From positions 1-63,760 of IMG/VR virus record IMGVR_UViG_3300036791_001402: a stretch of 63,760 nt of DNA; one strand, 5' to 3'. A model generated the notes under the pieces. It saw only the letters and a list, made by a program, of their open reading frames with translations, was not told the origin of the DNA and searched no databases. Origin of the DNA: a virus. Lineage: Duplodnaviria; Caudoviricetes. The stretch's first letter is position 1. Each line of letters opens with the position of its first letter. The position numbers and the translations under genes were made by a program. Below, piece by piece: positions 2,809 through 63,751 of the stretch.

Positions 2809-3231
2809 ATGACGGACATCAGCTTTGTTACCTACACGCGACCGGAGCCGCAGGGATCGATGAAGGGCTTCGTGCGTCAGGGCAAGCCTGTAGTCACGTC
2901 TGACAATCCCAAAATGCGTCCCTATCGCGACGAGGTGACGCGCAACGCTGTCTACGAGCTGGCCAAGGCCAACCTCCCGCGCCCTCTGGCGGGGAAGCAT
3001 GTGCCGGTGAGCGTGGTTTACGATTTTCATTTCTCCCGACCTCCGTCGATTCCGAAGAAGCGGCATCATGTGGTAGTCAAGCCGGATTTTGACAAGCTGG
3101 CGCGCAGCACGACTGATGCTCTGACCGGCGTTCTCTACGTCGATGACGCGCAGATTGTCGAGGCCAGCATTCGCAAACACTACGGAACCCCGGAGCGGGT
3201 GGAGATTTCGGTGACCGTGCTGGAGGAGTAG
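2809..3231 (+). CDS. rusA: RusA-family Holliday junction resolvase
   Basis: PQGS N-terminal motif, KPDFDKLARSTTDAL, DDAQIV. Confidence 0.88.
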   Translation: MTDISFVTYTRPEPQGSMKGFVRQGKPVVTSDNPKMRPYRDEVTRNAVYELAKANLPRPLAGKHVPVSVVYDFHFSRPPSIPKKRHHVVVKPDFDKLARSTTDALTGVLYVDDAQIVEASIRKHYGTPERVEISVTVLEE

Positions 3232-5959: not shown

Positions 5960-6166
5960 TTACCAGTCTTTGGCGTATTCGACCAATTCCTTTTTGCTTT
6001 TACGCTTCTTCTTGGCCTTCCCGCGAGGACGCCCACGGGGCTTAGCGCCGTTCCACATCCGGCTGGTGCAGCGGGGACATTTCTGCGGGTCGGTGAGCGA
6101 TTCCCACTCCCACGCGCAGACCTCGCACCGGCAGTGCTGCACCTCGCGCACAACGGTGGTGATCAT
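5960..6166 (-). CDS. Zinc-ribbon protein with AT-hook-like basic tail
   Basis: CEVC...W...CPRC...W followed by KPRGRPRGK; ATGA overlap with the recombinase. Confidence 0.7.
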   Translation of the reverse strand: MITTVVREVQHCRCEVCAWEWESLTDPQKCPRCTSRMWNGAKPRGRPRGKAKKKRKSKKELVEYAKDW

Positions 6167-6822
6167 GTGACCTCCTTCTGGCTGGCGAGGATCTTGCGGA
6201 TGGTGCCGCCCGACCACGGAAGCCCGGAGCGGCTGAAGTGCTGTCCGTTATTCAACTGTCCGGCGATGGCTTCGCTCTTGAAACCGGTCTCCGCGAGGGT
6301 GAGCATCGTGGCAAGGATCATGCCTTCGCCGGGATAGGTGCCGTAGGGCTTGCGCCCCTCGCAGCGACCCTCCTTGGCCTTCTTGCGCTGCCGTGCGCCC
6401 CGGAGCTTGAGGACGATCATGGCCTTCTCGTATTCGGCGATAGCGCCGAAGATCTGCCGCACCAGCTTGCGCGAGGGATCCTCAGAGCAGAGGTCCGGCT
6501 CACAGGTGGAGATGAGCGTATAGCCGCTCTTCTTCATGTCGGAGATGATGGTTTCCGACACCATCAGGTCACGGGCAAGCCGGTCGAGCTTCTCAACGAT
6601 GATCGACTTGACTCCGTTTTCGGCGAGTGCGGCGAAGAGTTCGGCGAGGGCCGGACGGTCGTCCAATTCCTTGGTGCCGGAGACGCCTTCCTCGCGGAAG
6701 ACTTCCACGATCTCGATGCCGTTGGCTGCGGCGTATGCCTGGCAAGCCAGCAACTGACGGTCGAACCCGTCGCCTTCCACCTGGCCTTTGCCTGAGACCC
6801 TCAGGTATGCGTAAGCTTTCAT
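6163..6822 (-). CDS. Serine recombinase (resolvase/invertase family)
   Basis: YLRVS catalytic Ser motif, EEGVSG, RPAL, KLDRLAR, GRKPYG. Confidence 0.93.
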   Translation of the reverse strand: MKAYAYLRVSGKGQVEGDGFDRQLLACQAYAAANGIEIVEVFREEGVSGTKELDDRPALAELFAALAENGVKSIIVEKLDRLARDLMVSETIISDMKKSGYTLISTCEPDLCSEDPSRKLVRQIFGAIAEYEKAMIVLKLRGARQRKKAKEGRCEGRKPYGTYPGEGMILATMLTLAETGFKSEAIAGQLNNGQHFSRSGLPWSGGTIRKILASQKEVT

Positions 6823-8192: not shown

Positions 8193-8491
8193 AGGTGCGT
8201 CTCCAGTCCGGTGAAAGCGGTGAAGGTGGTCTGGAGGTCGGAAGCGTGGAGATGCTCGAAGGTCTCGATCACCCGCATCGACCAGTCGCCGCCCTTGCCG
8301 ACCTGCCACATGATCATGCGGTAGGTATCGTCGGGCTGGAGGACCACACAGACGTGGGTGACTTTGCTGACCGGTCGCGCCAGCTTCCAGCGCAGGGAAT
8401 GCTGGTCGCCGACTAAATACTTGGCGCCGGTCATGGCGACGAATCGCGACCCGCCCATCTGCTCGAGGATGGTTTTCGCAACGGCTGTCAT
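8189..8491 (-). CDS. Phage hypothetical protein (ILEQMGGxRFxAMTGAK)
   Basis: ATG 8491 in ATGA overlap; recurrent phage early-gene motif. Confidence 0.7.
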   Translation of the reverse strand: MTAVAKTILEQMGGSRFVAMTGAKYLVGDQHSLRWKLARPVSKVTHVCVVLQPDDTYRMIMWQVGKGGDWSMRVIETFEHLHASDLQTTFTAFTGLETHL

Positions 8492-8841: not shown

Positions 8842-9038
8842 GAGGTCTCCTTAGTGGTCCTGATCGCGATTACGCGGCCGGCGGGGTCGGTGACGCGATG
8901 AATGACGGTGCGGGTAGGTCTGGGTTCGTTCAGGTGGAAGCGGACGCTGTCGGGCCGGAAGCGGCATTCGATAGCGGGGTCGTGGTCGGCCTCGCACCAC
9001 GGGCAGGAGGGCAGGATGTGCGCCGGTCGGGTTCTCAT
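8838..9038 (-). CDS. Small hypothetical protein (CPWC...H...C)
   Basis: ATGA overlaps at both ends. Confidence 0.55.
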   Translation of the reverse strand: MRTRPAHILPSCPWCEADHDPAIECRFRPDSVRFHLNEPRPTRTVIHRVTDPAGRVIAIRTTKETS

Positions 9039-9532
9039 TTGCTCATCTCCCACAGGAAGGATTTCCCGACGACGACGGGTTGCACTGTGACACCGTTCCA
9101 CTCGCGGAGATCATCGAAGGTGGTGATCTCCGGTTGGAAGCCGGGATAGACCGTCTCCCGCCATTTAGTGAAAACCAACCGCTGGGCTTCCTTGCGGTCA
9201 TGCGAGATCGCCATCACCGTATAGCCCCCGGCATCGCACATGCCCACGAAGACCGTCTCAGGTTCAGGTTGACGGTCGGGGGCGGCGACCTCGCGAGGGA
9301 CGACCGGATGGAGTCGGGCCATAAGGGCTTCGCGTTTGGCACGACCAGCGGCTAAAGCGGTTTCGCGGTCAGGGAAGGGTTTGTTGTCGCCGACGCTGAT
9401 GAAGCGCAGGAATTTGGTGAAGGGTTTGCCGGTGCGCTTGTTTCGCGCTGTCATGTATTCCCGAATCGAGCAGTAGAATCCGCCGATCCCTGATGCGCTG
9501 GTTCCGATCTTGTAACGCTCACTTGCTTTCAT
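9035..9532 (-). CDS. Hypothetical protein, first gene after ribozyme G
   Basis: ATG 9532 lies 12 nt after the ribozyme; GGAAAGAGA leader. Confidence 0.7.
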   Translation of the reverse strand: MKASERYKIGTSASGIGGFYCSIREYMTARNKRTGKPFTKFLRFISVGDNKPFPDRETALAAGRAKREALMARLHPVVPREVAAPDRQPEPETVFVGMCDAGGYTVMAISHDRKEAQRLVFTKWRETVYPGFQPEITTFDDLREWNGVTVQPVVVGKSFLWEMSK

Positions 9533-9544
9533 AGTTCTCTTTCC

Positions 9545-9597
9545 GTGCCATTGGTTGAAGCTCAGGTGCGCCACGCGAAGGCTGGACACTTGCACCC
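9545..9597 (-). ncRNA. Minimal HDV-like self-cleaving ribozyme, copy G
   Basis: GGGTGC-AA-GTGTCCA-GCC-TTCGCGT-GGC-GCACCT-GA-GCTTCAA-CCAA-TGGCAC; P1 with G.U first pair, P2 with one bulge, P3, P1.1 UC/GA, J4/2 CCAA. Confidence 0.82.
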
Positions 9598-9622
9598 GCC
9601 CGGATTCGCTCCGGGGCAGCGG

Positions 9623-9862
9623 TTAATCTGCGTCCTGCATCCAGCGTGGATGGTCGTCGCGGATGTCGTCTATCGTGTAGCGCCCCACGCGTTGCATGAG
9701 GATCTCGTTAGCCTGAGACTCAAATCCCGTTGCCACTTCGAGAATGGGCGCATGGAAGCTATTGCCATTGCGACGGTGAGGGATTCCATGCTTGTCGAGT
9801 TGCCGTTCAATCCACGACAGTTTCGGTTCGTTGGTTCGCTTGCAAAACAAGACATAGTCCAT
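9623..9862 (-). CDS. Hypothetical protein
   Basis: TAATG-coupled to the upstream gene; SFHAPIL motif. Confidence 0.65.
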   Translation of the reverse strand: MDYVLFCKRTNEPKLSWIERQLDKHGIPHRRNGNSFHAPILEVATGFESQANEILMQRVGRYTIDDIRDDHPRWMQDAD

Positions 9863-10350
9863 TACTTACCCCCTTTGTAGATTGCCAAGGCGGTTTCCAT
9901 GGGCAGCAGGTTGAGGATCTGGACCGCCTTTAGCTTGGCGGGGGTCTGGGGGTCGCGCAGATAGGTGCCGACCTGCGCGGGAGTCAGTTTGCGGGTCTCG
10001 AAGATGCCCTCGCTGCCGACCTTGGTGAAGAGGATCTTGTTAGTCATGGCGCGTTTCAGGTCTTTGGCTAGAAGGTGATCTTCGAGCAGGTCGCCGATAA
10101 GGATGTCGGCATCCTGCGGGTAGGTTTCAGTCGTGCCGTCGCCCATGTCCATGGCGACCGGCGGGAGCGTGGCGGCATACTCGGCCAGGCGGGTTTCCAG
10201 GGCGAAGGGCTGATAGAAATTCGGGCCGCCGTGCCCGTCGTTGCGGACGTCTCCAGCACGTTTGCCGTCGATGTAGATGGTGGCCTCGAAGCAGTGGGTT
10301 TCCTCAGAGGCGAATGCCGCCCGTTTGATGTTCCTGAGTTCGATCTTCAT
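9862..10350 (-). CDS. Conserved phage hypothetical protein (SEETxCFEA...NDGHGG)
   Basis: ATG 10350 lies 14 nt after ribozyme F; the 407-aa call is an upstream extension. Confidence 0.75.
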   Translation of the reverse strand: MKIELRNIKRAAFASEETHCFEATIYIDGKRAGDVRNDGHGGPNFYQPFALETRLAEYAATLPPVAMDMGDGTTETYPQDADILIGDLLEDHLLAKDLKRAMTNKILFTKVGSEGIFETRKLTPAQVGTYLRDPQTPAKLKAVQILNLLPMETALAIYKGGK

Positions 10351-10364
10351 GAGTTCTCTTTTCC

Positions 10365-10417
10365 GCTTGATTGGTTGACGCTCAGTCCCGCCGACGTGAA
10401 GGCTCAAGCTTGGGACC
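10365..10417 (-). ncRNA. Minimal HDV-like self-cleaving ribozyme, copy F
   Basis: GGTCCC-AA-GCTTGA-GCC-TTCACGTC-GGC-GGGACT-GA-GCGTCAA-CCAA-TCAAGC. Confidence 0.85.
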
Positions 10418-10708
10418 ATCCCCCGGAATCCGGTACTCGCGTTCAAGGCGTTCGTTCGATGCCTTGACCATTTCGACCGTGAGCGGGGGTTGCGGCTTGA
10501 ATCCCTCCAGCTTGCGCTCCACCCAATAGAGGACTGCGGTACGGGTTCCGGTGTAGCCCTGAAAGACTCCATCGAACGTGTAGATGACTCCGGGGTCGGG
10601 TTCGGGATAGTCGGCATATACGGCATCAGCGACCGTGACCTTGTGACCTTTGACCGTGGTTTGCATCCATTCGCCGACGACGCGGAAATCGGATAAGCGG
10701 CATCCCAT
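10382..10708 (-). CDS. Hypothetical protein whose last codons and stop lie inside ribozyme F
   Basis: GGAGG RBS; ORF reads ...IPGDGPKLEPSRRRD* with TGA at 10384-10382. Confidence 0.6.
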   Translation of the reverse strand: MGCRLSDFRVVGEWMQTTVKGHKVTVADAVYADYPEPDPGVIYTFDGVFQGYTGTRTAVLYWVERKLEGFKPQPPLTVEMVKASNERLEREYRIPGDGPKLEPSRRRD

Positions 10709-11023
10709 CTATTTGCCCTCCGTGAGTGCAGCCAAGGCTGAAGCGATGTTGTCGCCCTCATAGAGGGTCTGGCAGAGTTCAGGTGGGTAATCCTCAAATC
10801 CGCCGACCGCCTGATAGACGCGATAGCGGGGCAATGCCATCTCCCGCTGATCCGGGTCGGGATGGTCCGACCAGATCTCGCGGGAGTCGATGGGGTCGGG
10901 GGTAACGAAGCGGGGGCAGACGTCGTTGTGCCACGATTCGTCGCTGAGCTTACCTGATTGAACGAGGGAGAGGATCTCCGGGGGAACGTTGTAGTCGGAT
11001 GCGAATTCTTTACGCCATGACAT
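10709..11023 (-). CDS. Phage hypothetical protein (DxSWHNDxCP motif)
   Basis: ATG 16 nt after ribozyme E; DESWHNDVCPRF, DHPDPDQRE. Confidence 0.75.
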   Translation of the reverse strand: MSWRKEFASDYNVPPEILSLVQSGKLSDESWHNDVCPRFVTPDPIDSREIWSDHPDPDQREMALPRYRVYQAVGGFEDYPPELCQTLYEGDNIASALAALTEGK

Positions 11024-11039
11024 GCTGTTTTCTCTTTCC

Positions 11040-11091
11040 GCTGATTCGGTAAACGCTCAGTCCCGCCCCGTGAAGGCATCAGCATGGGACC
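11040..11091 (-). ncRNA. Minimal HDV-like self-cleaving ribozyme, copy E
   Basis: GGTCCC-AT-GCTGAT-GCC-TTCACGG-GGC-GGGACT-GA-GCGTTTA-CCGA-ATCAGC. Confidence 0.85.
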
Positions 11092-11120
11092 ATGCCCCGG
11101 AATGACTCCGGGGGTTAGTG

Positions 11121-11603
11121 CTACGCCCTCACGGTCGCACCGTGGGCCACAGACGCGTTATAGATGGCATCTACGACCGCTGCCAGATCAATGCAGTCGG
11201 TTCCGACCTCGACCCATACCCCGTTGCCGTCGCCGACCAGACCGCCGTCGGCATCGCTGTCGTCCGCGCCCCATTTGTCGCCTGAGGTTCCCCACACCAG
11301 TTCGCCCTTGTCGGTCTTGAGAACGGAGACGCACCAGATGCCCCCGCCCGTGTGCATCAGACCAGCGGTCAGTCTTTTTGCGGTCAAGGCCGAAGCGATG
11401 GCCTCCATCCATTCGGTGCCGTAGTCTTCGCGGACGGATTCGCCCAGACCTTCCTCGACTTCGTTGAGCATGTCGGTGAGCCATCCGGCGACGGTCTCGC
11501 GGACAGGGTCGTTTTCTTCAGCGGGGATCTCCGCCTGATTGTCGAGCCAATTGCCGACGAGGTCATAGAACTTCTGGGCGCGAATCCTGTTCAGTGTGTC
11601 CAT
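11121..11603 (-). CDS. Acidic hypothetical protein (HTGGGIWC motif)
   Basis: ATG 11603 lies 17 nt after ribozyme D. Confidence 0.72.
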   Translation of the reverse strand: MDTLNRIRAQKFYDLVGNWLDNQAEIPAEENDPVRETVAGWLTDMLNEVEEGLGESVREDYGTEWMEAIASALTAKRLTAGLMHTGGGIWCVSVLKTDKGELVWGTSGDKWGADDSDADGGLVGDGNGVWVEVGTDCIDLAAVVDAIYNASVAHGATVRA

Positions 11604-11620
11604 CGTGTTTTCTCTTTTCC

Positions 11621-11672
11621 GCTGATTTGGTTGTCGCTCAGTCCCGCCACGAGAAGGCATCAGCTTGGGACC
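11621..11672 (-). ncRNA. Minimal HDV-like self-cleaving ribozyme, copy D
   Basis: GGTCCC-AA-GCTGAT-GCC-TTCTCGT-GGC-GGGACT-GA-GCGACAA-CCAA-ATCAGC. Confidence 0.87.
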
Positions 11673-11699
11673 GTATCCCGGCATGGCCGGGATGGTTGC

Positions 11700-12026
11700 T
11701 CAGGCGAAGGTCTTGAGCCACGCTGCTACGATCTCTTCATGGATATCGACGTCGCTCGACAGCGTGGTTGATTTCGACTCATGCGTCTCGCCTTCGTCGT
11801 AGGCTTTGCGGGAAGCGTAGACGTCGCCATCCCACGTCTCATTGGCGTCTCCGAATGCGACCACGGTCCCGTCGGGCATGTCGGTAATGATGACCGTCAC
11901 GTTGCTGTCGGCGAGGGATTCGCTGGGGAATCCGTGAGCGGTGAGTTGCTTGGCGACCCAGTCCATTTCGGCGAGGTGGGTCGAGAAGGCGTTGTCGTCC
12001 ATTGCTTCATATTTCGCGATGCTCAT
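11700..12026 (-). CDS. Acidic hypothetical protein
   Basis: ATG 12026 lies 14 nt after ribozyme C. Confidence 0.72.
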   Translation of the reverse strand: MSIAKYEAMDDNAFSTHLAEMDWVAKQLTAHGFPSESLADSNVTVIITDMPDGTVVAFGDANETWDGDVYASRKAYDEGETHESKSTTLSSDVDIHEEIVAAWLKTFA

Positions 12027-12040
12027 TGGTTCTCTTTTCT

Positions 12041-12093
12041 GCCTGATTGGTAGTTGCTCAGTCCCGCGAACGTGAACGCTCAGGCGTGGGACC
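12041..12093 (-). ncRNA. Minimal HDV-like self-cleaving ribozyme, copy C
   Basis: GGTCCC-AC-GCCTGA-GCG-TTCACGTT-CGC-GGGACT-GA-GCAACTA-CCAA-TCAGGC; P3 covaries (GCG/CGC). Confidence 0.85.
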
Positions 12094-12109
12094 ATCCCCG
12101 TGAGGGGAG

Positions 12110-12262
12110 TTACTGCAACTCGTCCGCTGGACGGTCCCAGTTGATGCTGTTGACGAAGGTGTCCTGAAAGTCGTGCCCACAAGTGTGTTGGGCGTATTGG
12201 TGCGCGTAGTTGTGTGTTTTGCAGGAATGTGTACCTGTGATGCAGTTGGTAGGCAGGTTCAT
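12110..12262 (-). CDS. 50-aa Cys/His-rich small protein
   Basis: ATG 12262 lies 14 nt after ribozyme B; stop just before the hairpin of copy C. Confidence 0.65.
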   Translation of the reverse strand: MNLPTNCITGTHSCKTHNYAHQYAQHTCGHDFQDTFVNSINWDRPADELQ

Positions 12263-12276
12263 CGATTCTCTTTTCC

Positions 12277-12328
12277 GCACATTCGGTAGTTGCTCAGTCT
12301 CGCCACGTGAAGGCATGTGCTTGAGACC
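12277..12328 (-). ncRNA. Minimal HDV-like self-cleaving ribozyme, copy B
   Basis: GGTCTC-AA-GCACAT-GCC-TTCACGT-GGC-GAGACT-GA-GCAACTA-CCGA-ATGTGC. Confidence 0.88.
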
Positions 12329-12349
12329 ATCCCCGCAAAGGGGAAAAGG

Positions 12350-12562
12350 TTAGTCGATTAGCGCGTCAATGGTTTGGCGTGCATAGTTCCACGATTGAGT
12401 GGACGGAACGCGATGAATCATCTGCCCGTCTTTTTCAATCCACATGTCGCCCGTGAGTGCATTGCGACGAACGAGGTATCCGCGATAGGCCATGCGGGAA
12501 AAGTCGACAGTCTGCAATGCTGCCAACGCTGCCATACTGCGATAGGTACGCTTAGTGGTCAT
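12350..12562 (-). CDS. Small hypothetical protein
   Basis: AAGGA RBS before ATG 12562. Confidence 0.65.
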   Translation of the reverse strand: MTTKRTYRSMAALAALQTVDFSRMAYRGYLVRRNALTGDMWIEKDGQMIHRVPSTQSWNYARQTIDALID

Positions 12563-12614
12563 GAGTGGTAATCCTTCTACCCATGATATCCCGCATGGGT
12601 ACGGCATTCAAGAG

Positions 12615-13343
12615 TTATGCTGCGATGGAGATCTGAACCAATTGGGCGACAGGGACCACGAATCCGCTCGTGTCTTTCTTTGCTGGACCTTTAGCGCGTA
12701 GTCCAATGACCGAACCCTTGTATCCGTCCAGAAAACGAAGGTCGTGCAAGTCGCCGTCAATGACCGGACGTCCAAGGAAAGTCGAAGGCAGGGGGGAACC
12801 TTTCTTTGTGTCGAAAACGACTGCCACATTCAACCCATGGTCCAATGCACGCATGGTCTCGGCTTCGTTGGTCTCAGAATGAGAAAACGTCAAGTGATAG
12901 TTCGGAGTAACGCGTTCCCATGCGCGTGCATGCTTCGTATAGTCGTAGAAAACCACGTTCGGGAATTCGCTTGCCATCATCAAAGCTAACCATGGAAGGT
13001 CGGACGTCCCATTGACCCGTACCGCAGGGATAAGCTTTTCCCGTTTAGCCTTGCGAATTAAAGCTTCAATCGACCAACGCATCGAAGCAAGGAATCCTTC
13101 CCTGTCATCGAACAGAAAGTGAGTCTTCGCAATGCGCTGCCGCACTATCGTGGGGAATGCTCCCCGTCCAGCTTTGAACAAACAAACGTTGCGGCATCCT
13201 TCGCTCGAATCAGTGCAGAGGTTCCCGCGTCCACCCTCAGAAGCGGGGGCAAGGTAAAGAATCCCGGTTAAATATCCCAAAGACTCGCCCTTGCTAGTCT
13301 TCGCATTTTCGGTGGTCAATAGTGCGCGATACTTCGTTGTCAT
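12615..13343 (-). CDS. Gene-product-88 (Gp88)-like Cys-containing protein
   Basis: NAKTSKG, GILYLAP, C-x5-GC-x3-C, RVNGTSD, FYDYTK, YHLTFS, DGDLHDLRFLD, GLRAKG. Confidence 0.8.
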   Translation of the reverse strand: MTTKYRALLTTENAKTSKGESLGYLTGILYLAPASEGGRGNLCTDSSEGCRNVCLFKAGRGAFPTIVRQRIAKTHFLFDDREGFLASMRWSIEALIRKAKREKLIPAVRVNGTSDLPWLALMMASEFPNVVFYDYTKHARAWERVTPNYHLTFSHSETNEAETMRALDHGLNVAVVFDTKKGSPLPSTFLGRPVIDGDLHDLRFLDGYKGSVIGLRAKGPAKKDTSGFVVPVAQLVQISIAA

Positions 13344-13357
13344 TCCGTCTCTTTTCC

Positions 13358-13409
13358 GTCGATTCAGTAGTTGCTCAGTTCCACCACGTGAAGGTATCGA
13401 CTTGGAACC
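13358..13409 (-). ncRNA. Minimal HDV-like self-cleaving ribozyme, copy A
   Basis: GGTTCC-AA-GTCGAT-ACC-TTCACGT-GGT-GGAACT-GA-GCAACTA-CTGA-ATCGAC; P1, P2 and P3 all covary versus other copies. Confidence 0.88.
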
Positions 13410-13427
13410 ATTCCCCCGCAGGGGAGG

Positions 13428-13646
13428 TTAGAAAACACACCAACGGACTATGTCATTCCACGACCATCCCGAACGACCTAACGCGTCCAATATCCGCTGG
13501 GTTTGAAACAACTTGTCTTCCCCAGCCATTTCGACATAGACATGTGCCGTACCTTCGCAAGTGACATCCAACCCACTCGCCCTCAAACGTTGTGCGGCAG
13601 ACTCAACTACAGTCGGACCACAGTAAACCCTGTATCGCGATGTCAT
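13428..13646 (-). CDS. Small hypothetical protein, first gene of the leftward operon
   Basis: Purine-rich leader (AAAGGAAAGGGAAAA) before ATG; stop precedes the hairpin of copy A. Confidence 0.65.
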   Translation of the reverse strand: MTSRYRVYCGPTVVESAAQRLRASGLDVTCEGTAHVYVEMAGEDKLFQTQRILDALGRSGWSWNDIVRWCVF

Positions 13647-13693
13647 TTTTCCCTTTCCTTTCTGTCTCTTGCACCGTCTTTGCTGCCCTAACC

Positions 13694-13724
13694 ATTATAC
13701 GGGTAAATCGGACGAATTTATCAT
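13694..13724 (-). promoter_or_regulatory. Putative sigma70 promoter for the leftward operon
   Basis: Perfect TATAAT on the minus strand at 13699-13694, about 48 nt before ATG; -35 weak. Confidence 0.45.
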
Positions 13725-14319
13725 CTCTCTACACATTTATTCCAACTATTTTCGACCATCCTAGTGTTGATTCGATTGCATTTATCCATAGCACGTGCGC
13801 CTGGTAAACGCGTTTTCAAAAATGCGACAGCTCTGTCGCTTTTTCAAACGTGGGAACCACTTCGTTTTTCGTTTTTCGGAATGCCATAGACGGCGAAAAT
13901 CTAGACCGCTAATTATGCTCAATCCGACCGGTCGCCCGGTCGCAGATCTGAGGGCGATCTGAGGTCTCAAAATTCGGTTTAGCAGCCTTTTGGATTGTCG
14001 CCCGGAAGGTCGATTGTCGAGTCGTTTGCGCCTAATCCGTAGAATTGGCGCGGACACTGTAAATACGGGGGAATCTGAGGGCGACGACAGGTCGGGGAAT
14101 ACTTGGAAAGAGGTTCCCATGGGGGCGACCTGTCGTTTTCGGGGGCTTGGGTTTGGTTTGGCGCGGGATTCTTTGTCCGCGACCCGCCGGCCGCTCGTCG
14201 ACGGCGACGCCTTCAGCCTTTCGATCCGCGAAAAACAAAAAAATAAAAAATGGGAAAGGTTAAAAAGCGGGAGTATAGTTTGTTTCCATGAATTGGGAAC
14301 CATAAAAGGGAAGCAATAA

Positions 14320-16681: not shown

Positions 16682-17040
16682 TGACCTGGCTGGTCGCATT
16701 GGCGGGATGGCTGGCGCTGGGCGGAGTGGAGGCGTGGGTCATCTGCTGGTGGGAAGAGCGGAGGCGGAGATGGACCGGGAATGGTTCAGGCAGAGGATAA
16801 GGCGGGAGCTGGCGCTGCGGCATCTGGTGGACCACAACCTGCGGGTGCTGAGGCGGGGCTACACGGCAAGGGACTGCACGGATGCGGTGGCGGAGGCCAT
16901 CTGGCGGCTGGTTGAAGAACAGGCCAGGGAGCGCGGGGCGGGGACGGAGAACGAGGGTGTACCGCTGCAGCACTGAAGATATCGGGGTGCCGGACGGTGT
17001 GCGTTGGAACGGCGCCGTCCGGGTTTTTTCGGGGAGCGGG

Positions 17041-18459
17041 ATGGCGGCTTACTACAACGAGAACGATGGGGCCAAGGCGGCGTGGCTCAGGGAACTGGTG
17101 AAGGCGGGACTGATCGCGGCGGGAGACGTGGACGAGAGAGGGATCGAGGATGTCCGAGCAGATGAGCTTGTGGGATACCGGCAGTGCCACTTCTTCGCCG
17201 GGGTCGGAGTCTGGAGCTACGCTCTCCGGTGTGCGGGGTGGGAAGACGAAAGGGAAGTCTGGACGGGATCGTGTCCCTGCCCGAGCTTCAGTGCCGCCGG
17301 AAAAGGCCGAGGGTTTGGAGACCCTCGTCACCTCTGGCCTCATTGGGCGCGACTCATCGGGGAGCGTAAGCCTCCAGTGCTCTTTGGAGAGATGGTTAAT
17401 GCCGCGATTGGACATGGCTGGTTCGACCTTGTTCAAACTGACCTGGAAGCACAGGAATACGCCGTTGGGAAGGCGGTATTTGGCGCATGTGGCGTCGGCG
17501 CACCGCACATCAGGATGCGGCTCTACTTCGTGGGCGAGTGCATGGCCCAGTCCCAATCGTGGGGACGACAACAACAGTCGCATCCCGCTGGAGAATATTC
17601 AGGCCTATTCGGAGCGCAGATTGTCGCGGGAGAACGCCTGCAGCCAACTGGCGGACACCGCCCAGGCGCTGGCGGCGTGGCCCACATGCGCGGCCTCAGA
17701 CGGCAACGGGGGGAAGGGGCCGCGTCACGGGATGAGTCCGACGGGACAGATGCCGGACGGCACGAAAGCGACGGTAGACCTGTCGGCGGCAGCGAAGATG
17801 CTGGCCGCATGGCCCACGCCCAACGCGATGGAGGGAGGGCAGACCTCGCGGAGCGGGGAGAGGAAGGACGAAGTGCTGATGGGCGGCATGGCGAGACTGG
17901 CGTCGTGGCGCACCCCGGACAGAACGGATTCCGACCGCGGCGTTCATCCTCACCCCGACGCTCAGGCGGGAAGCCATTCGCTGGTAACGGAGTCGGGGCT
18001 GGCGTCGTGGTCCAGCCCCAGCGCGAGGGACTGGAAAGATACTCCGGGGATGGCGACCACGGGGACCGATCCCGACGGGACGGAGCGGGAGAGGCTGGAC
18101 CAGTTGCCGCGTCAGGCGCATCTGAGCGGGTGGCCCACGCCCATGGCGGGGAGTCCGGCGACGGAGGAATACAACGAAGCGGGGAACAACGATTCCAGCC
18201 GCAGAACGCAAGCGTTGGTAATGGAAGTGGACGGCCCGGTGCGGTTAACGGCTTCTGGCGAGATGCTGACTGGCTCCGCTGCCGGGATGGACGGTGGCGG
18301 CCAGCTCGACCCGGCACATTCCCGCTGGTTGCAGGGACTGCCGCCCGAGTGGTGCGACTGCGGGGTTACGGCGATGCGCTCTGCGCGCCGGCCGCGCAAG
18401 CCTTCATCGAAAGCTACATCGACGCCTGTCAGGAAAGGGAAGTGAACGATGGCGTATGA
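17041..18459 (+). CDS. DNA (cytosine-5) methyltransferase, alpha polypeptide
   Basis: FFAGVG (motif I), GSCPCPSFS (catalytic PC), [16 protein letters not shown] (VIII), LRGYGDAL (X). Confidence 0.88.
17150..18445 (+). CDS. Overlapping-frame C5 methyltransferase beta-like polypeptide with six W-P-T-P-type repeats
   Basis: 431-codon open frame inside the MTase; GAGG before ATG; [16 protein letters not shown] resembles motif IX. Confidence 0.72.
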
Positions 18460-51587: not shown

Positions 51588-52832
51588 GTGGCCAACCTGA
51601 AAGTGAAACTGATGTGGATGTGCAAGACCGAAACCGGCTGGCGCCGCTTCCCGGTGATCATGGGCAAGAACGGCAGCGTCAAGCCCCATGCCGTGGTGGC
51701 CGGTGGCCAGACCCGCCTCTACCCCGAAGGGCATTTCGAGATCCGCTGGTACGAAGGCAGCAACAAGAAGTACGACAATGCCGGGTTGAGCGCCCCCGAC
51801 GCCCTCCTCAAACGCGCCCAGAAAGAACAGGAGCTGAGGGTCCGCAGTCAGGCCCGGGAAGCCGGACTGATGATCGTCGAACCGGTGTCGGTCGGCAGCG
51901 ACGGGAGAGTGCGGAAACCCATCCAGAGCGAATTCGACGCCTTCATCCTCCACGTCGAGTCCAAAGGATCCCCGGTCGCGGCCCGGGCCTATACCCTCGC
52001 CATCGATGAGTTTCTGACCGTGCCTTCGGTCGCCGCCAAGCAGTTCATGGATCAACTCTCGCGCTCCGACATGGATGCCTACATGACCCTGCTCCGCAAG
52101 CGGGGCTGCAGCGACCGCACGGTGAAGAACCGCTTTGTGAACGTCAAGGCGTTCTTCATCTTCGCCGGTCTCAACCCGCGCCTGACCGGCTCCCAGGCAC
52201 TGGCGCTCGAAGCCCCCAAATTCGAGAAGCGCACCGTGTCGGTCTACGACCCGGAAGATCTGGCCCTCTTCTTCGCGGCCATCCTGAACCCGCGTTTCTT
52301 TGCCGCCTGTCAGATCATGCTCAACTGTGGTCTGCGCGACAAGGAGATGCGCTACCTCGAATGGCGCAACGTGCATCTGCACGGCCAGCATCCCCGCATC
52401 CACATCGAGGGAGATGAGAAATACCTGTTCAAGGTAAAGAAGAGTGAACAGCGGGACATTCCTCTGCGCGAAGACTTGCTTGAGTTTCTGATTGACTACC
52501 GCAAGCAGCACCCCAGCGACAGTCCTCTGGTTTGTCCCACGTCGAACGGTTGTCCGAATACCCGCCTGTGGTTTCATGTGAAGGCCGCGGCGCGACGGGC
52601 GGGATTGAATTGCGGCTCATGCGCGGCTTGCCGGGAACGGGACGAATGCGAGGCGTGGTATCCGCACAAATTCCGCGCCACCTTCATCACCGGCTGCCAC
52701 GAGGTGATGGGGCTTCGCAGCGTGATGAAGCTGTCCGGGCATTCCACGCTGGGATCGGTGGAACGCTACCTGTCTCCGGCCAGAGACTCGATCATCCGCG
52801 AAAAGCTCAACAAGGTGAAGTTCATCGCCTGA
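51588..52832 (+). CDS. int: Tyrosine integrase
   Basis: CGLRDKE (R), KVKK (K), HKFR (HxxR), SGH, RYL (Y). Confidence 0.93.
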   Translation: MANLKVKLMWMCKTETGWRRFPVIMGKNGSVKPHAVVAGGQTRLYPEGHFEIRWYEGSNKKYDNAGLSAPDALLKRAQKEQELRVRSQAREAGLMIVEPVSVGSDGRVRKPIQSEFDAFILHVESKGSPVAARAYTLAIDEFLTVPSVAAKQFMDQLSRSDMDAYMTLLRKRGCSDRTVKNRFVNVKAFFIFAGLNPRLTGSQALALEAPKFEKRTVSVYDPEDLALFFAAILNPRFFAACQIMLNCGLRDKEMRYLEWRNVHLHGQHPRIHIEGDEKYLFKVKKSEQRDIPLREDLLEFLIDYRKQHPSDSPLVCPTSNGCPNTRLWFHVKAAARRAGLNCGSCAACRERDECEAWYPHKFRATFITGCHEVMGLRSVMKLSGHSTLGSVERYLSPARDSIIREKLNKVKFIA

Positions 52833-56985: not shown

Positions 56986-57732
56986 TCAGTCGATCCACTG
57001 GATGGGTAGCTCGATGAAGTGCCGCTGGTCGAGCGGCTCTACTTCGATGGCCTCTTTGAATGAACGGGCGTTCCTCCAGTCGTTGCCGTTGAGCTTGGCC
57101 CTCTAGGCGGTATAACACCAGGCCATCGAGTCGGCACTATAGAGCAGGGAACGGATGACCCCGGACTCGAGCGAGGTCCGCTTCAATCCGAAACCGTGCA
57201 ACCGCAGATCCGGCCTCCTGAGCCGGATGGCGACCAGAACATCGCGGACCTTGAGCGGCGTTCCATTCCTCTTGCACACCGAACCGACGCCCACCCACAT
57301 GTTCTGCCTGAGCCGCTCCCCGTACATCTCGATGTGGCGCTGATACTCTGCGGGGTCGTATCCCTGCAGCACCGGCATGATGTACACGCCCGTGTCCTCG
57401 CGCAGCAAAGCGTCGTAGCGTTCGATGGTCAGGCGCTGGTGGTCCTCGACCGTCATCCCGGTGCGCTCGAGCATGTGGGGTTCGCACATAAAGTCCTGAG
57501 TGACAGCCGCCAGTAGCGTTCCGCAGTGCTTCCACTTCCTGATCTGAGCCGCGTACTCGCTCACCGGGAAGGGATAGCCGCCGTGCTTCTCGATAGTCGA
57601 GAACGCCCCGGAATCGAGGATCCACCGGTTGACCTTCATCGACCTGCGGCACCGCAGACGGTGGATGGAGATGAAGGCATGGTCGATGTGCCGTGCATCA
57701 GAAGGCTGGTGAAGTCCGGTGAAGAAGATCAT
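56986..57732 (-). CDS. TGT-fold / DpdA-like (DUF7221-type) protein, interrupted by an in-frame TAG at 57105-57103
   Basis: LDSGAFS, QDFMCEP, PVLQG, VGVGSVCKR, LHGFGLK, SADSMAW; frame continues 38 codons past TAG. Confidence 0.75.
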
Positions 57733-58241
57733 GTGAACAAGGACTCCATGGTGCCGCACGACTGCTCCGCCGCCGGCATCGCCGTCACAGGAAGGTGCAG
57801 GGTCAGAAAGCCTTTTTTGGTGCGATAGGGGCAGCGGACAAACCCCGCCCTCAGGTAGCAGCGCCCCGGATCCCGTTTGGGACGAATCTTGGCGGCATCG
57901 ATAAAAGTCACCATCGCAATTACGTTGTTGCAATGAGGACACTGAATGTAGGGCGTAAACCCCCACCACCACGAGGTCGCGGCCAGAGCTTCGCGGATCA
58001 ATTGGCTGGCCAGCGGTCCCGACTCGCGCCGGAAGAGGACGTTGATCCACGCCCCCCGCCACGCATGGCTGGCGAAGACCGGCCAGGAACTAACCCAGAG
58101 GGCGGAGCCGGTGATCGAGGTCAGGACGAGGCATCGGCCCGGGGGAACGAACTGGGGACTGTCCGGCGTCTGGCGGTTGTAGTGGCGGTTGGCGATCGAG
58201 AGAGCATGCGGCTCGAAGCGACTGGAGATCTGCCACTGCAT
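57729..58241 (-). CDS. Putative Mom-like/GNAT DNA-modification protein
   Basis: RHYNRQ..QFVPPGRCLVL, FRRE...ASQLI, TFID, PGRCYLRAGF; ATGA-coupled to the DpdA-like gene. Confidence 0.55.
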   Translation of the reverse strand: MQWQISSRFEPHALSIANRHYNRQTPDSPQFVPPGRCLVLTSITGSALWVSSWPVFASHAWRGAWINVLFRRESGPLASQLIREALAATSWWWGFTPYIQCPHCNNVIAMVTFIDAAKIRPKRDPGRCYLRAGFVRCPYRTKKGFLTLHLPVTAMPAAEQSCGTMESLFT

Positions 58242-63344: not shown

Positions 63345-63751
63345 TTTGGAAGACTATCTCATGCCGGAAACAGCACCCGACTACCCAGAAGAATCCCCAA
63401 TTCTGGAGGTAACCCCGCGCAAGCTGACCGTCGCGGAGCAGACCGCAGACCTGCTGTCCGAGGTCAAGAGCGGGGCGCCCGTAAACATCGACGCGGAACG
63501 AACCATTTTGGGGGCCATATTGCTCGACAATGCGGCCCTCCTTGAGGTTCAGAAGGGGCTGACACCATCCGACTTCTCCCTTTCGTCTCATCGAGTTATC
63601 TGGGCGCGTATGGTGAGCCTCGAAGCCGCCGGTCATGCCATCGACATCGTGACTCTGGTCAACGAACTGGACCGGCATAACGAGACCAGGGAGATCGGGG
63701 GCGCGGCGTATTTGGCCTCCCTGACCGAAGGTCTTCCCCGCCGGCCGGTGA
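63337..63751 (+). CDS. Replicative helicase, 5' part (DnaB N-terminal domain); continues at the window start
   Basis: GAGG RBS, ATG 63337; PVNIDAERTILGAILLDN...DFSLSSHRVIW...IDIVTL. Confidence 0.85.
63626..63751 (+). repeat. Terminal direct repeat, copy 2
   Basis: Identical to 1-126. Confidence 0.97.

Follow-up and report, generated by a model that had tools for sequence, protein, structure and literature searches.

What does a short GC-rich hairpin do when it stands directly in front of a predicted self-cleaving ribozyme, at one junction after another of a single bacteriophage operon? This question is raised by IMGVR_UViG_3300036791_001402, a 63,760-base IMG/VR virus record of soil metagenome origin, which was analyzed over its full length (hereafter the window). 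An earlier interpretation made from the DNA letters (the sequence-only reading) had described such a hairpin before each of seven hepatitis delta virus (HDV)-type ribozymes and had proposed that the hairpins protect the 3' ends of messages rather than terminate transcription. Our analysis leads us to favor, with moderate confidence, a self-cleavage module in which the hairpin would cap the 3' end of each released message and would perhaps also shield the folding of the ribozyme.

A repeated junction in a phage operon

The operon comprises small genes that, like all of its hairpins and ribozymes, lie on the minus strand (Table 1), and a repeat search identified an element of ~80 nucleotides (nt) at seven of its junctions. 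Read along the minus strand, the module opens with a stop codon, after which come a compact GC hairpin, a spacer of 1-5 unpaired nt, a 52-53-nt ribozyme core, the purine-rich ribosome site GGAAA(A)GAGA and an ATG, which lies 12-17 nt past the core at all seven junctions. As the sequence-only reading had it, the stop codon directly precedes the hairpin (by 1-7 nt) at six of the seven junctions, with junction c2 as the exception; at c3, the reading frame ends at the TAG (11121-11123) and not at the adjoining TAA. Hairpin and ribozyme stand too close together to fit a promoter between them. The distances from one predicted cut to the next are 1081, 235, 421, 581, 674 and 820 nt, identical to the intervals given earlier. 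All seven ribozyme-led genes (9532-13357) share the GGAAA(A)GAGA site, while canonical AAGGAGG-type sites precede many of the phage's other genes; relative to these, the uniform site of the ribozyme-led genes is probably weaker. Only one of the eleven operon genes matched a Pfam family, namely GP88 (PF17338, start ATG at 13343).

The cores follow the pattern G-G-N4 / AN / N6 / N3 / UUCNCG(N) / N3 / N4-CU / GAG / CNNNNA / C-N-R-A / N6, and their predicted fold is an HDV-type double pseudoknot without the paired region P4. P1 has six standard pairs with an invariant G.U pair first, at the predicted cut, in 7/7 copies, and it occurs in four compensatory variants (GGUCCC/GGGACU, GGUCUC/GAGACU, GGUUCC/GGAACU and GGGUGC/GCACCU). 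Six pairs between the segment after P1 and the 3' end form P2, for which the seven copies have six different sequences, and three pairs close the loop L3 to form P3 (variants GCC/GGC, GCG/CGC and ACC/GGU, with both sides changed in c5 and c7). The L3 sequence UUCNCG(N) and the GAG after P1 are present in all seven copies, with the UC of L3 predicted to pair with the GA to form P1.1, and in all seven P4 is replaced by six unpaired bases (CNNNNA) between the GAG and the joining segment J4/2. In 7/7 window copies, which were found by repeat similarity with no constraint on this base, the fourth base before the P2 3' strand is invariably C; its site, first in J4/2, is that of the catalytic cytosine of HDV ribozymes.

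A covariance model built from the copies and run with filters off returned the seven window matches at E <= 4.4e-12, and the next match had an E value of 3.2. MAFFT misplaced the extra base of the 53-nt cores, an error that the covariance model inherited for c1, and pairs were instead counted by a parser. By these features the ribozymes belong to the minimal HDV-like ("theta") class, which has already been published, and they are predicted to cleave themselves. The cuts of self-cleaving ribozymes are known to yield 2',3'-cyclic-phosphate and 5'-OH ends (PMC8782182, in part).

When the 22 nt upstream of each predicted cut were folded, GC stem-loops were obtained at the same seven positions as described in the sequence-only reading. 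Compared with the 12,748 minus-strand windows of 22 nt, six of the seven hairpins rank among the best 2.5%, with c2 at 13%, and random sets of seven windows, drawn 200,000 times, never attained the mean energy of the seven hairpins. Hairpins of -8.3 kcal/mol or lower follow the stop codon at 6/6 ribozyme junctions that have one, versus 8/74 other, crudely called ends of open reading frames (ORFs) in the window. The earlier estimate that each hairpin lies within ~3 nt of its ribozyme was accurate for six junctions (spacers of 1-3 nt) and has to be amended for c2, whose spacer is 5 nt. Folding of whole junctions also predicted the hairpin in 7/7 cases, although that of c1 was partly merged into a larger fold. 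Compact windows of 22 and 28 nt were adopted for these measurements; a measure that spanned 45 nt and forced the last pair was dropped because its random-site median of about -7 kcal/mol gave no discrimination.

The hairpins of the window fall into three stem types: CCGGA/UCCGG at c1, c2 and c3, UCCCC/GGGGA at c5, c6 and c7, and c4 on its own. Within a type, stems are identical and perfectly paired while loops differ in both sequence and length. That stems are kept while loops vary suggests selection on pairing, although it does not amount to compensatory evidence.

Table 1. Features of the window and of the second ribozyme array (ribozymes and hairpins predicted; c1 to c7 number the junctions by rising coordinate; "fraction" is the share of the 12,748 minus-strand 22-nt windows that fold at least as well; bp, base pairs).
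Feature	Coordinates	Strand	Details
Operon, 11 small genes	9035..13646	-	frames supported by codon-position GC
HDV-like ribozyme c7, G1 13409	13358..13409	-	P1 GGUUCC/GGAACU, P3 ACC/GGU; ATG of GP88-family gene 13343
HDV-like ribozyme c6, G1 12328	12277..12328	-	P1 GGUCUC/GAGACU; ATG 12262
HDV-like ribozyme c5, G1 12093	12041..12093	-	P3 GCG/CGC, 8-nt L3; ATG 12026
HDV-like ribozyme c4, G1 11672	11621..11672	-	ATG 11603
HDV-like ribozyme c3, G1 11091	11040..11091	-	ATG 11023
HDV-like ribozyme c2, G1 10417	10365..10417	-	ATG 10350; TGA of upstream ORF inside
HDV-like ribozyme c1, G1 9597	9545..9597	-	P1 GGGUGC/GCACCU, one P2 bulge; ATG 9532
Hairpin before c7	13412..13425	-	-10.0 kcal/mol, 5 bp, tetraloop, 2-nt spacer, in-frame TAA 2 nt upstream; fraction 0.0071
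Hairpin before c6	12330..12344	-	-8.3 kcal/mol, 5 bp, 1-nt spacer; fraction 0.0231
Hairpin before c5	12095..12108	-	-8.4 kcal/mol, 5 bp, 1-nt spacer; fraction 0.0196
Hairpin before c4	11675..11693	-	-14.1 kcal/mol, 8 bp, triloop, 2-nt spacer; fraction 0.0002
Hairpin before c3	11095..11113	-	-13.2 kcal/mol, 7 bp, 3-nt spacer; fraction 0.0007
Weak hairpin before c2	10423..10433	-	-5.2 kcal/mol, 4 bp, triloop, 5-nt spacer; fraction 0.1323
Hairpin before c1	9599..9615	-	-10.9 kcal/mol, 6 bp, 1-nt spacer; fraction 0.0035
Terminator-like hairpin, T-runs on both strands	13824..13839		upstream of operon, terminator scan
G006 ribozyme array (L382 = G006:C1:8000-19000)	G1 at L382 10017, 9539, 8259, 5963, 4723, 3085, 1234	-	model scan
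Serine resolvase	6163-6822	-	Pfam
C5 cytosine methylase	16882-18459	+	Pfam
Tyrosine integrase	51588-52832	+	Pfam
DpdA-family protein (7-deazaguanine DNA modification)	57103-58062	-	Pfam

Related junctions and the setting of the record

Relatives were sought by scanning IMG/VR with patterns for the core and passing the hits through a parser that required pairing of P1 and P3 and left P2 free. This yielded 26 distinct cores in 29 contexts, the seven window copies included. Pairing of P1 and the catalytic C (26/26) were imposed on these cores by parser and pattern, whereas in P2 standard pairs occupied 143 of 156 cells, 65 of which were changed on both sides, and three of the 26 cores needed a one-base bulge; with swapped partners, the paired fraction averaged 0.49 and reached at most 0.63 in 1000 trials. 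Since P2 is paired though pairing was not demanded of it, the cores are real relatives.

A compact hairpin 0-3 nt before the cut that ranks within the best 5% of its own locus was present in 10 of the 22 contexts outside the window (L013, L015, L016, L019, L022, L024, L025, L343, L360 and L366), and the sequences of these hairpins are mutually unrelated. L360 is a junction of the array described below, which leaves nine further single copies. Across records, loops measure 3-7 nt and stems 4-10 bp. The earlier description of the stems as sequence-variable applies in full only between phages; within the window, with its three types of conserved stem, it holds in part. The spacer is 1-3 nt at 22 of the 24 hairpin-bearing junctions of the window, the other contexts and the array combined. 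The hairpin was present in 7/9 contexts with a start codon no more than 32 nt downstream (ORF of at least 35 codons) compared with 3/13 contexts without one nearby, counts that are indicative only, as the sequences are partly related. They indicate that the hairpin follows the mRNA context rather than the ribozyme itself.

A model search of nine whole records behind the relatives found eight with a single copy and one, a 77,775-base phage record (G006, the source of L360), with five. With filters off, seven G006 ribozymes were called, all on one strand and within a 9-kb stretch; two gave weaker matches (E = 0.0055 and 0.038). Hairpins with a 1-nt spacer precede all seven cuts, and a fraction of only 0.0006-0.0149 of 3,627 control windows folds as well. 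A Shine-Dalgarno sequence and a start codon follow 7/7 ribozymes, with the start 13-21 nt beyond position +50, and, by the longest-ORF rule, 5/7 cuts have an upstream ORF that ends 20-35 nt ahead of them. Read from the alignments, P1.1 covaries in this array (UUC/GAG, UAC/GUG and GGC/GCG). The junctions at 9539 and 5963 are identical in both hairpin and ribozyme, and similarity to the c1 and c3 hairpins of the window is seen in some G006 hairpins (CCGGAGCGUUAUCCGG, CCCGGAGAAAUCCGGG), with CCGGAG...UCCGG common to the two phages. A tblastn search of the window's eleven proteins against the G006 array stretch found nothing better than E = 0.003, and thus the module is shared but the cargo is not. 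Taken together, these comparisons indicate that the junction layout recurs independently: two unrelated phages have it at 14 junctions in all, and nine single sites elsewhere add to these. Two G006 copies show peculiarities of their own: by eye, the copy at 8259 has apparently kept a short P4 hairpin, and at 3085 the UAG of a 255-codon ORF spans the predicted cut.

Other searches extended the family little. Two further length-variant core patterns gave no additional real ribozyme, and a pattern that joined the 3' half of the ribozyme to the ribosome site of the window found no stretch in viral contigs. Scans of metagenome and genome contigs gave at least three and at least one model matches, respectively, at E <= 0.001 among the 80 loci listed for each, and the parser recognized at least two further real copies there (L202 and L343); no host assignment was usable among the matches listed from these contigs. 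No ribozyme was found at E <= 0.1 in 80 loci encoding GP88 homologues.

One subfamily of relatives, marked by a conserved CACUAU upstream of the ribozyme (L351, L356, L365, L370, L350, L352, L353, L354, L359 and L367), accounts for several of the twelve contexts without a compact hairpin; it has no adjacent hairpin and often has a T-arm-like GGUUCGAxUCC stem ~13 nt upstream of the ribozyme. ARAGORN detected no tRNA in 14 related loci, including the subfamily members L350-L354, L359 and L367. In L351, L356, L365 and L370, two ribozyme matches lie on either side of a 143-nt segment; cuts at both ends may free this segment as a small RNA.

As for the record itself, ARAGORN called no tRNA in the window, and a blastn search of positions 9000-14000 against an annotated phage collection gave no match. 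Among sequencing runs, no RNA run was listed for the stretch, whereas one DNA run, of a soil metagenome, contains it and is perhaps where it came from. Since the phage encodes a DpdA-family protein, a C5 methylase, an integrase and a resolvase (Table 1), it is probably a temperate phage whose DNA is modified. The record is listed as linear in IMG/VR, with a CheckV completeness estimate of 78%. An exact 126-nt direct repeat is present at the record ends (1-126 and 63626-63751) and may be the mark of a circular or terminally redundant genome.

What the hairpins may do

In the mechanism that we propose, RNA polymerase would read through the hairpin, which lacks a U-tract, and the transcribed ribozyme would fold as a double pseudoknot and cut 5' of its first nucleotide, G1. 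The upstream message would then end in the hairpin and a 1-5-nt tail with a 2',3'-cyclic phosphate, too short for 3' exonucleases and devoid of the 3'-OH that tailing enzymes use. A tail of that length falls below what PNPase, RNase II or RNase R require, and polymerases that depend on a 3'-OH have no means of extending a cyclic phosphate. The downstream message would start with a 5'-OH on the folded ribozyme, with the ribosome site directly after it, and the operon would be divided into six messages of one or two genes each, with the cut-to-cut lengths given above, in addition to leader and tail pieces. Because it would fold first, the hairpin would probably also keep the upstream coding sequence from mispairing with the ribozyme. 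According to passages of PMC3997798, 3' exonucleases degrade the RNA upstream of an endonucleolytic cut unless it is structured, and tailing by poly(A) polymerase lets exonucleases re-engage structured ends.

Several points weigh against this mechanism. In the same source (PMC3997798, in part), mRNA decay is said not to be initiated chiefly by 3' exonucleases, and the 5'-OH product that the glmS ribozyme releases is degraded in Bacillus subtilis by RNase J1. The sequence-only reading had counted the 5'-OH as a cap against RNase E, which holds for that enzyme but not for the B. subtilis case; protection of the downstream piece therefore depends on the host. Rfam gave no match in the whole window at gathering scores. 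Its best match was RF02682 (HDV-F-prausnitzii), to c6 only, with 19.1 bits compared to a cut-off of 44 (E = 3.4), and the others at E <= 10 were chance matches only; the missing match is understandable because the RF02682 model contains P4. The energies of whole-junction folds were no better than those of shuffled sequences (z from -1.41 to +1.07) and lend no support, a result that we regard as neutral because a nested-fold program cannot score the pseudoknot. There are three hairpin types in the window with no compensatory change inside a type, and shared descent explains part of this pattern. Cleavage and transcript ends are deduced here from sequence alone, by which protection and insulation are also inseparable.

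Junction c2 is a further difficulty, as it combines a weak hairpin and a 5-nt spacer with the absence of a stop codon before the cut. The ORF upstream of it (start at 10708) runs through the hairpin and 33 nt of the ribozyme to a TGA at 10382-10384 within the invariant CUGAGC, so that cleavage at c2 would produce a message without a stop codon. Its hairpin looks like a c3-type hairpin minus its loop. At locus L013, the same TGA of CUGAGC ends a 289-codon ORF. A 407-codon ORF on the minus strand (9862-11085), which starts within ribozyme c3 and overlaps two genes and c2, is most likely spurious, given a GC content of 0.67 at the middle codon position and a low-complexity translation rich in Ser, Arg, Pro and Thr; gene callers may nevertheless pick this frame.

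The competing explanation that survives best, although we consider it unlikely, is that the hairpin is a folding insulator only, like the P(-1) hairpin of HDV, which would form first, tie up the sequence beside the cut and so keep coding sequence upstream of it from pairing with strands of the ribozyme, with no real effect on message stability. The hairpin is always transcribed before the ribozyme, and its G-rich 3' arm and the spacer could, judged by eye, otherwise pair with the UCCC of P1; for antigenomic HDV, passages of PMC2396440 report that stabilization of P(-1), in competition with inactive pairing, raised the cleaved fraction. However, the hairpin tracks the downstream start codon and not the ribozyme itself, and 12 of the 22 other family members lack an adjacent compact hairpin (a shortfall that also counts against our own mechanism). 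Nor would an insulator need to end 1-3 nt from the cut, as nearly all hairpins do, whereas an exonuclease block would. Close spacing and the association with mRNA context fit 3' protection better than a pure folding role, although the two are not mutually exclusive.

It is improbable that the hairpin is a functionless passenger that was duplicated with the ribozyme, as a relic of a terminator or of a tRNA acceptor stem. Duplication predicts a few hairpin types, such as the three in the window, and would also account for the two identical G006 junctions and for the CCGGAG...UCCGG common to both phages; moreover, most published theta ribozymes follow a tRNA, according to passages of PMC10879173. 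Perfectly paired stems beside divergent loops argue for selection on pairing instead, and hairpins of wholly unrelated sequence stand at the same distance from the cut in nine further records. The sole decayed hairpin, that of c2, coincides with a lost stop codon, which implies that decay is visible when it occurs.

We give very little credence to the idea that a protein of phage or host, for example a nuclease, an end-healing enzyme or a regulator of translation, binds the hairpin and acts at each junction: the CCGGAG...UCCGG stem in two unrelated phages would suit it, but hairpin sequence, loop size and stem length vary freely across records, the stems are too short for RNase III, and no RNA-repair or RNA-binding Pfam family was found among the 69 other window ORFs at E <= 1e-5. 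Least probable of all is a role in ending or grading transcription after each gene, as intrinsic terminators or attenuators of partial effect without a U-tract, since, although GC-rich stems just past stop codons occupy the usual terminator place, none of the seven is followed by a T-run or called by a scan that does call the hairpin at 13824-13839 (the sole one with a U-tract near the operon), the ribozyme 1-5 nt downstream works only if transcribed, there is no promoter room and the region has promoter-like sites in close to the number due to chance (6 found versus 3.0 +/- 1.7 expected), and the layout is identical at 7/7 G006 junctions. The hairpins are therefore not main terminators, in agreement with that half of the sequence-only reading and with its remark that U-tracts are absent; the other half, a role as 3' protectors, fits the anatomy.

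Known systems and biological meaning

Minimal HDV-like ribozymes are abundant in phages, and Riccitelli is said to have reported them in 2014. To our knowledge, a role has been proposed so far only for those adjacent to tRNAs. In passages of the account of theta ribozymes by Kienbeck (2024, PMC10879173), these are, like the ribozymes of the window, P4-less double pseudoknots of ~52-56 nt from Caudoviricetes phages, with the catalytic C first in J4/2 and a helix that abuts the cut, in their case a tRNA acceptor stem within 1 nt. Since theta ribozymes cleave in vitro next to this acceptor stem (PMC10879173, in part), an abutting helix is compatible with activity. The tRNA subgroup is defined by a cut within 5 nt of the tRNA 3' end, whereas the window has no tRNA and the helix at its cuts is a hairpin of its own that comes after a stop codon; in addition, a ribosome site and a start codon follow, seven copies occupy one operon, and the phage comes from soil rather than gut. 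The same passages leave 526 non-tRNA theta hits with "unknown biological functions".

Clusters of prophage hammerhead ribozymes (Perreault 2011, PMC3088659) are similar in that several ribozymes flank single genes of phage-type operons, and they cut ~2-kb precursors into the expected pieces in vitro. They differ in ribozyme class and in array size (up to three copies), and the passages of that report on which we draw mention no cut-adjacent hairpin. Processing of polycistronic transcripts by ribozymes has been suggested in reviews (PMC6765202). The P(-1) hairpin of HDV (Brown 2008, PMC2396440, in part) likewise lies upstream of an HDV-type ribozyme and favors its active fold, but it belongs to an animal-virus RNA, where it is described as part of a switch between mRNA maturation and replication and not as a bacterial 3' cap. 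A literature search outside subscription journals and the supplements of PMC10879173 (7,704 non-tRNA theta sequences) found no paper on a junction of hairpin, ribozyme and ribosome site and no operon array of HDV-like ribozymes.

The RNase III sites of T7 early mRNA resemble the window junctions in that a phage message is cut between genes and the upstream product ends in a stabilizing hairpin; according to passages of PMC3867540, single-strand RNase III cuts leave 3' hairpins that are stability determinants. There, however, a host protein enzyme acts on a duplex of about two turns, often with an internal loop, while here the RNA would cut itself next to stems of 4-8 bp (PMC3867540, in part, for the T7 sites). 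Unlike the T7 products, those of the window are predicted to carry 2',3'-cyclic phosphate and 5'-OH ends. The T7 sites are the nearest functional counterpart. Synthetic insulators of the RiboJ type reportedly place a self-cleaving ribozyme and a hairpin before a ribosome site to decouple expression from upstream sequence; they are said to be man-made and of the hammerhead type, with a hairpin that lies downstream of where the RNA is cut, at the 5' end of the message being insulated.

We tentatively propose that hairpin, minimal HDV-like ribozyme and ribosome site form a portable, enzyme-free "cistron punctuation" cassette, which might split operons into separately capped messages and might explain orphan theta ribozymes. 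If so, each gene would be expressed and degraded independently of its neighbors and of host RNase III and RNase E, and the cassette would travel and duplicate with small accessory genes, as a natural counterpart of synthetic ribozyme insulators. Such natural, compact parts of ~75-100 nt could serve for gene insulation in synthetic operons, and the arrays could offer a clean system for the effect of 2',3'-cyclic-phosphate and 5'-OH ends on bacterial mRNA decay. Within the theta class, the fixed grammar of stop codon, hairpin, 1-3 nt, cut, ribozyme and ribosome site gives the orphans a testable job, the cutting of operons without a host enzyme, which, if the proposal is true, would provide a function for hundreds of non-tRNA theta ribozymes.

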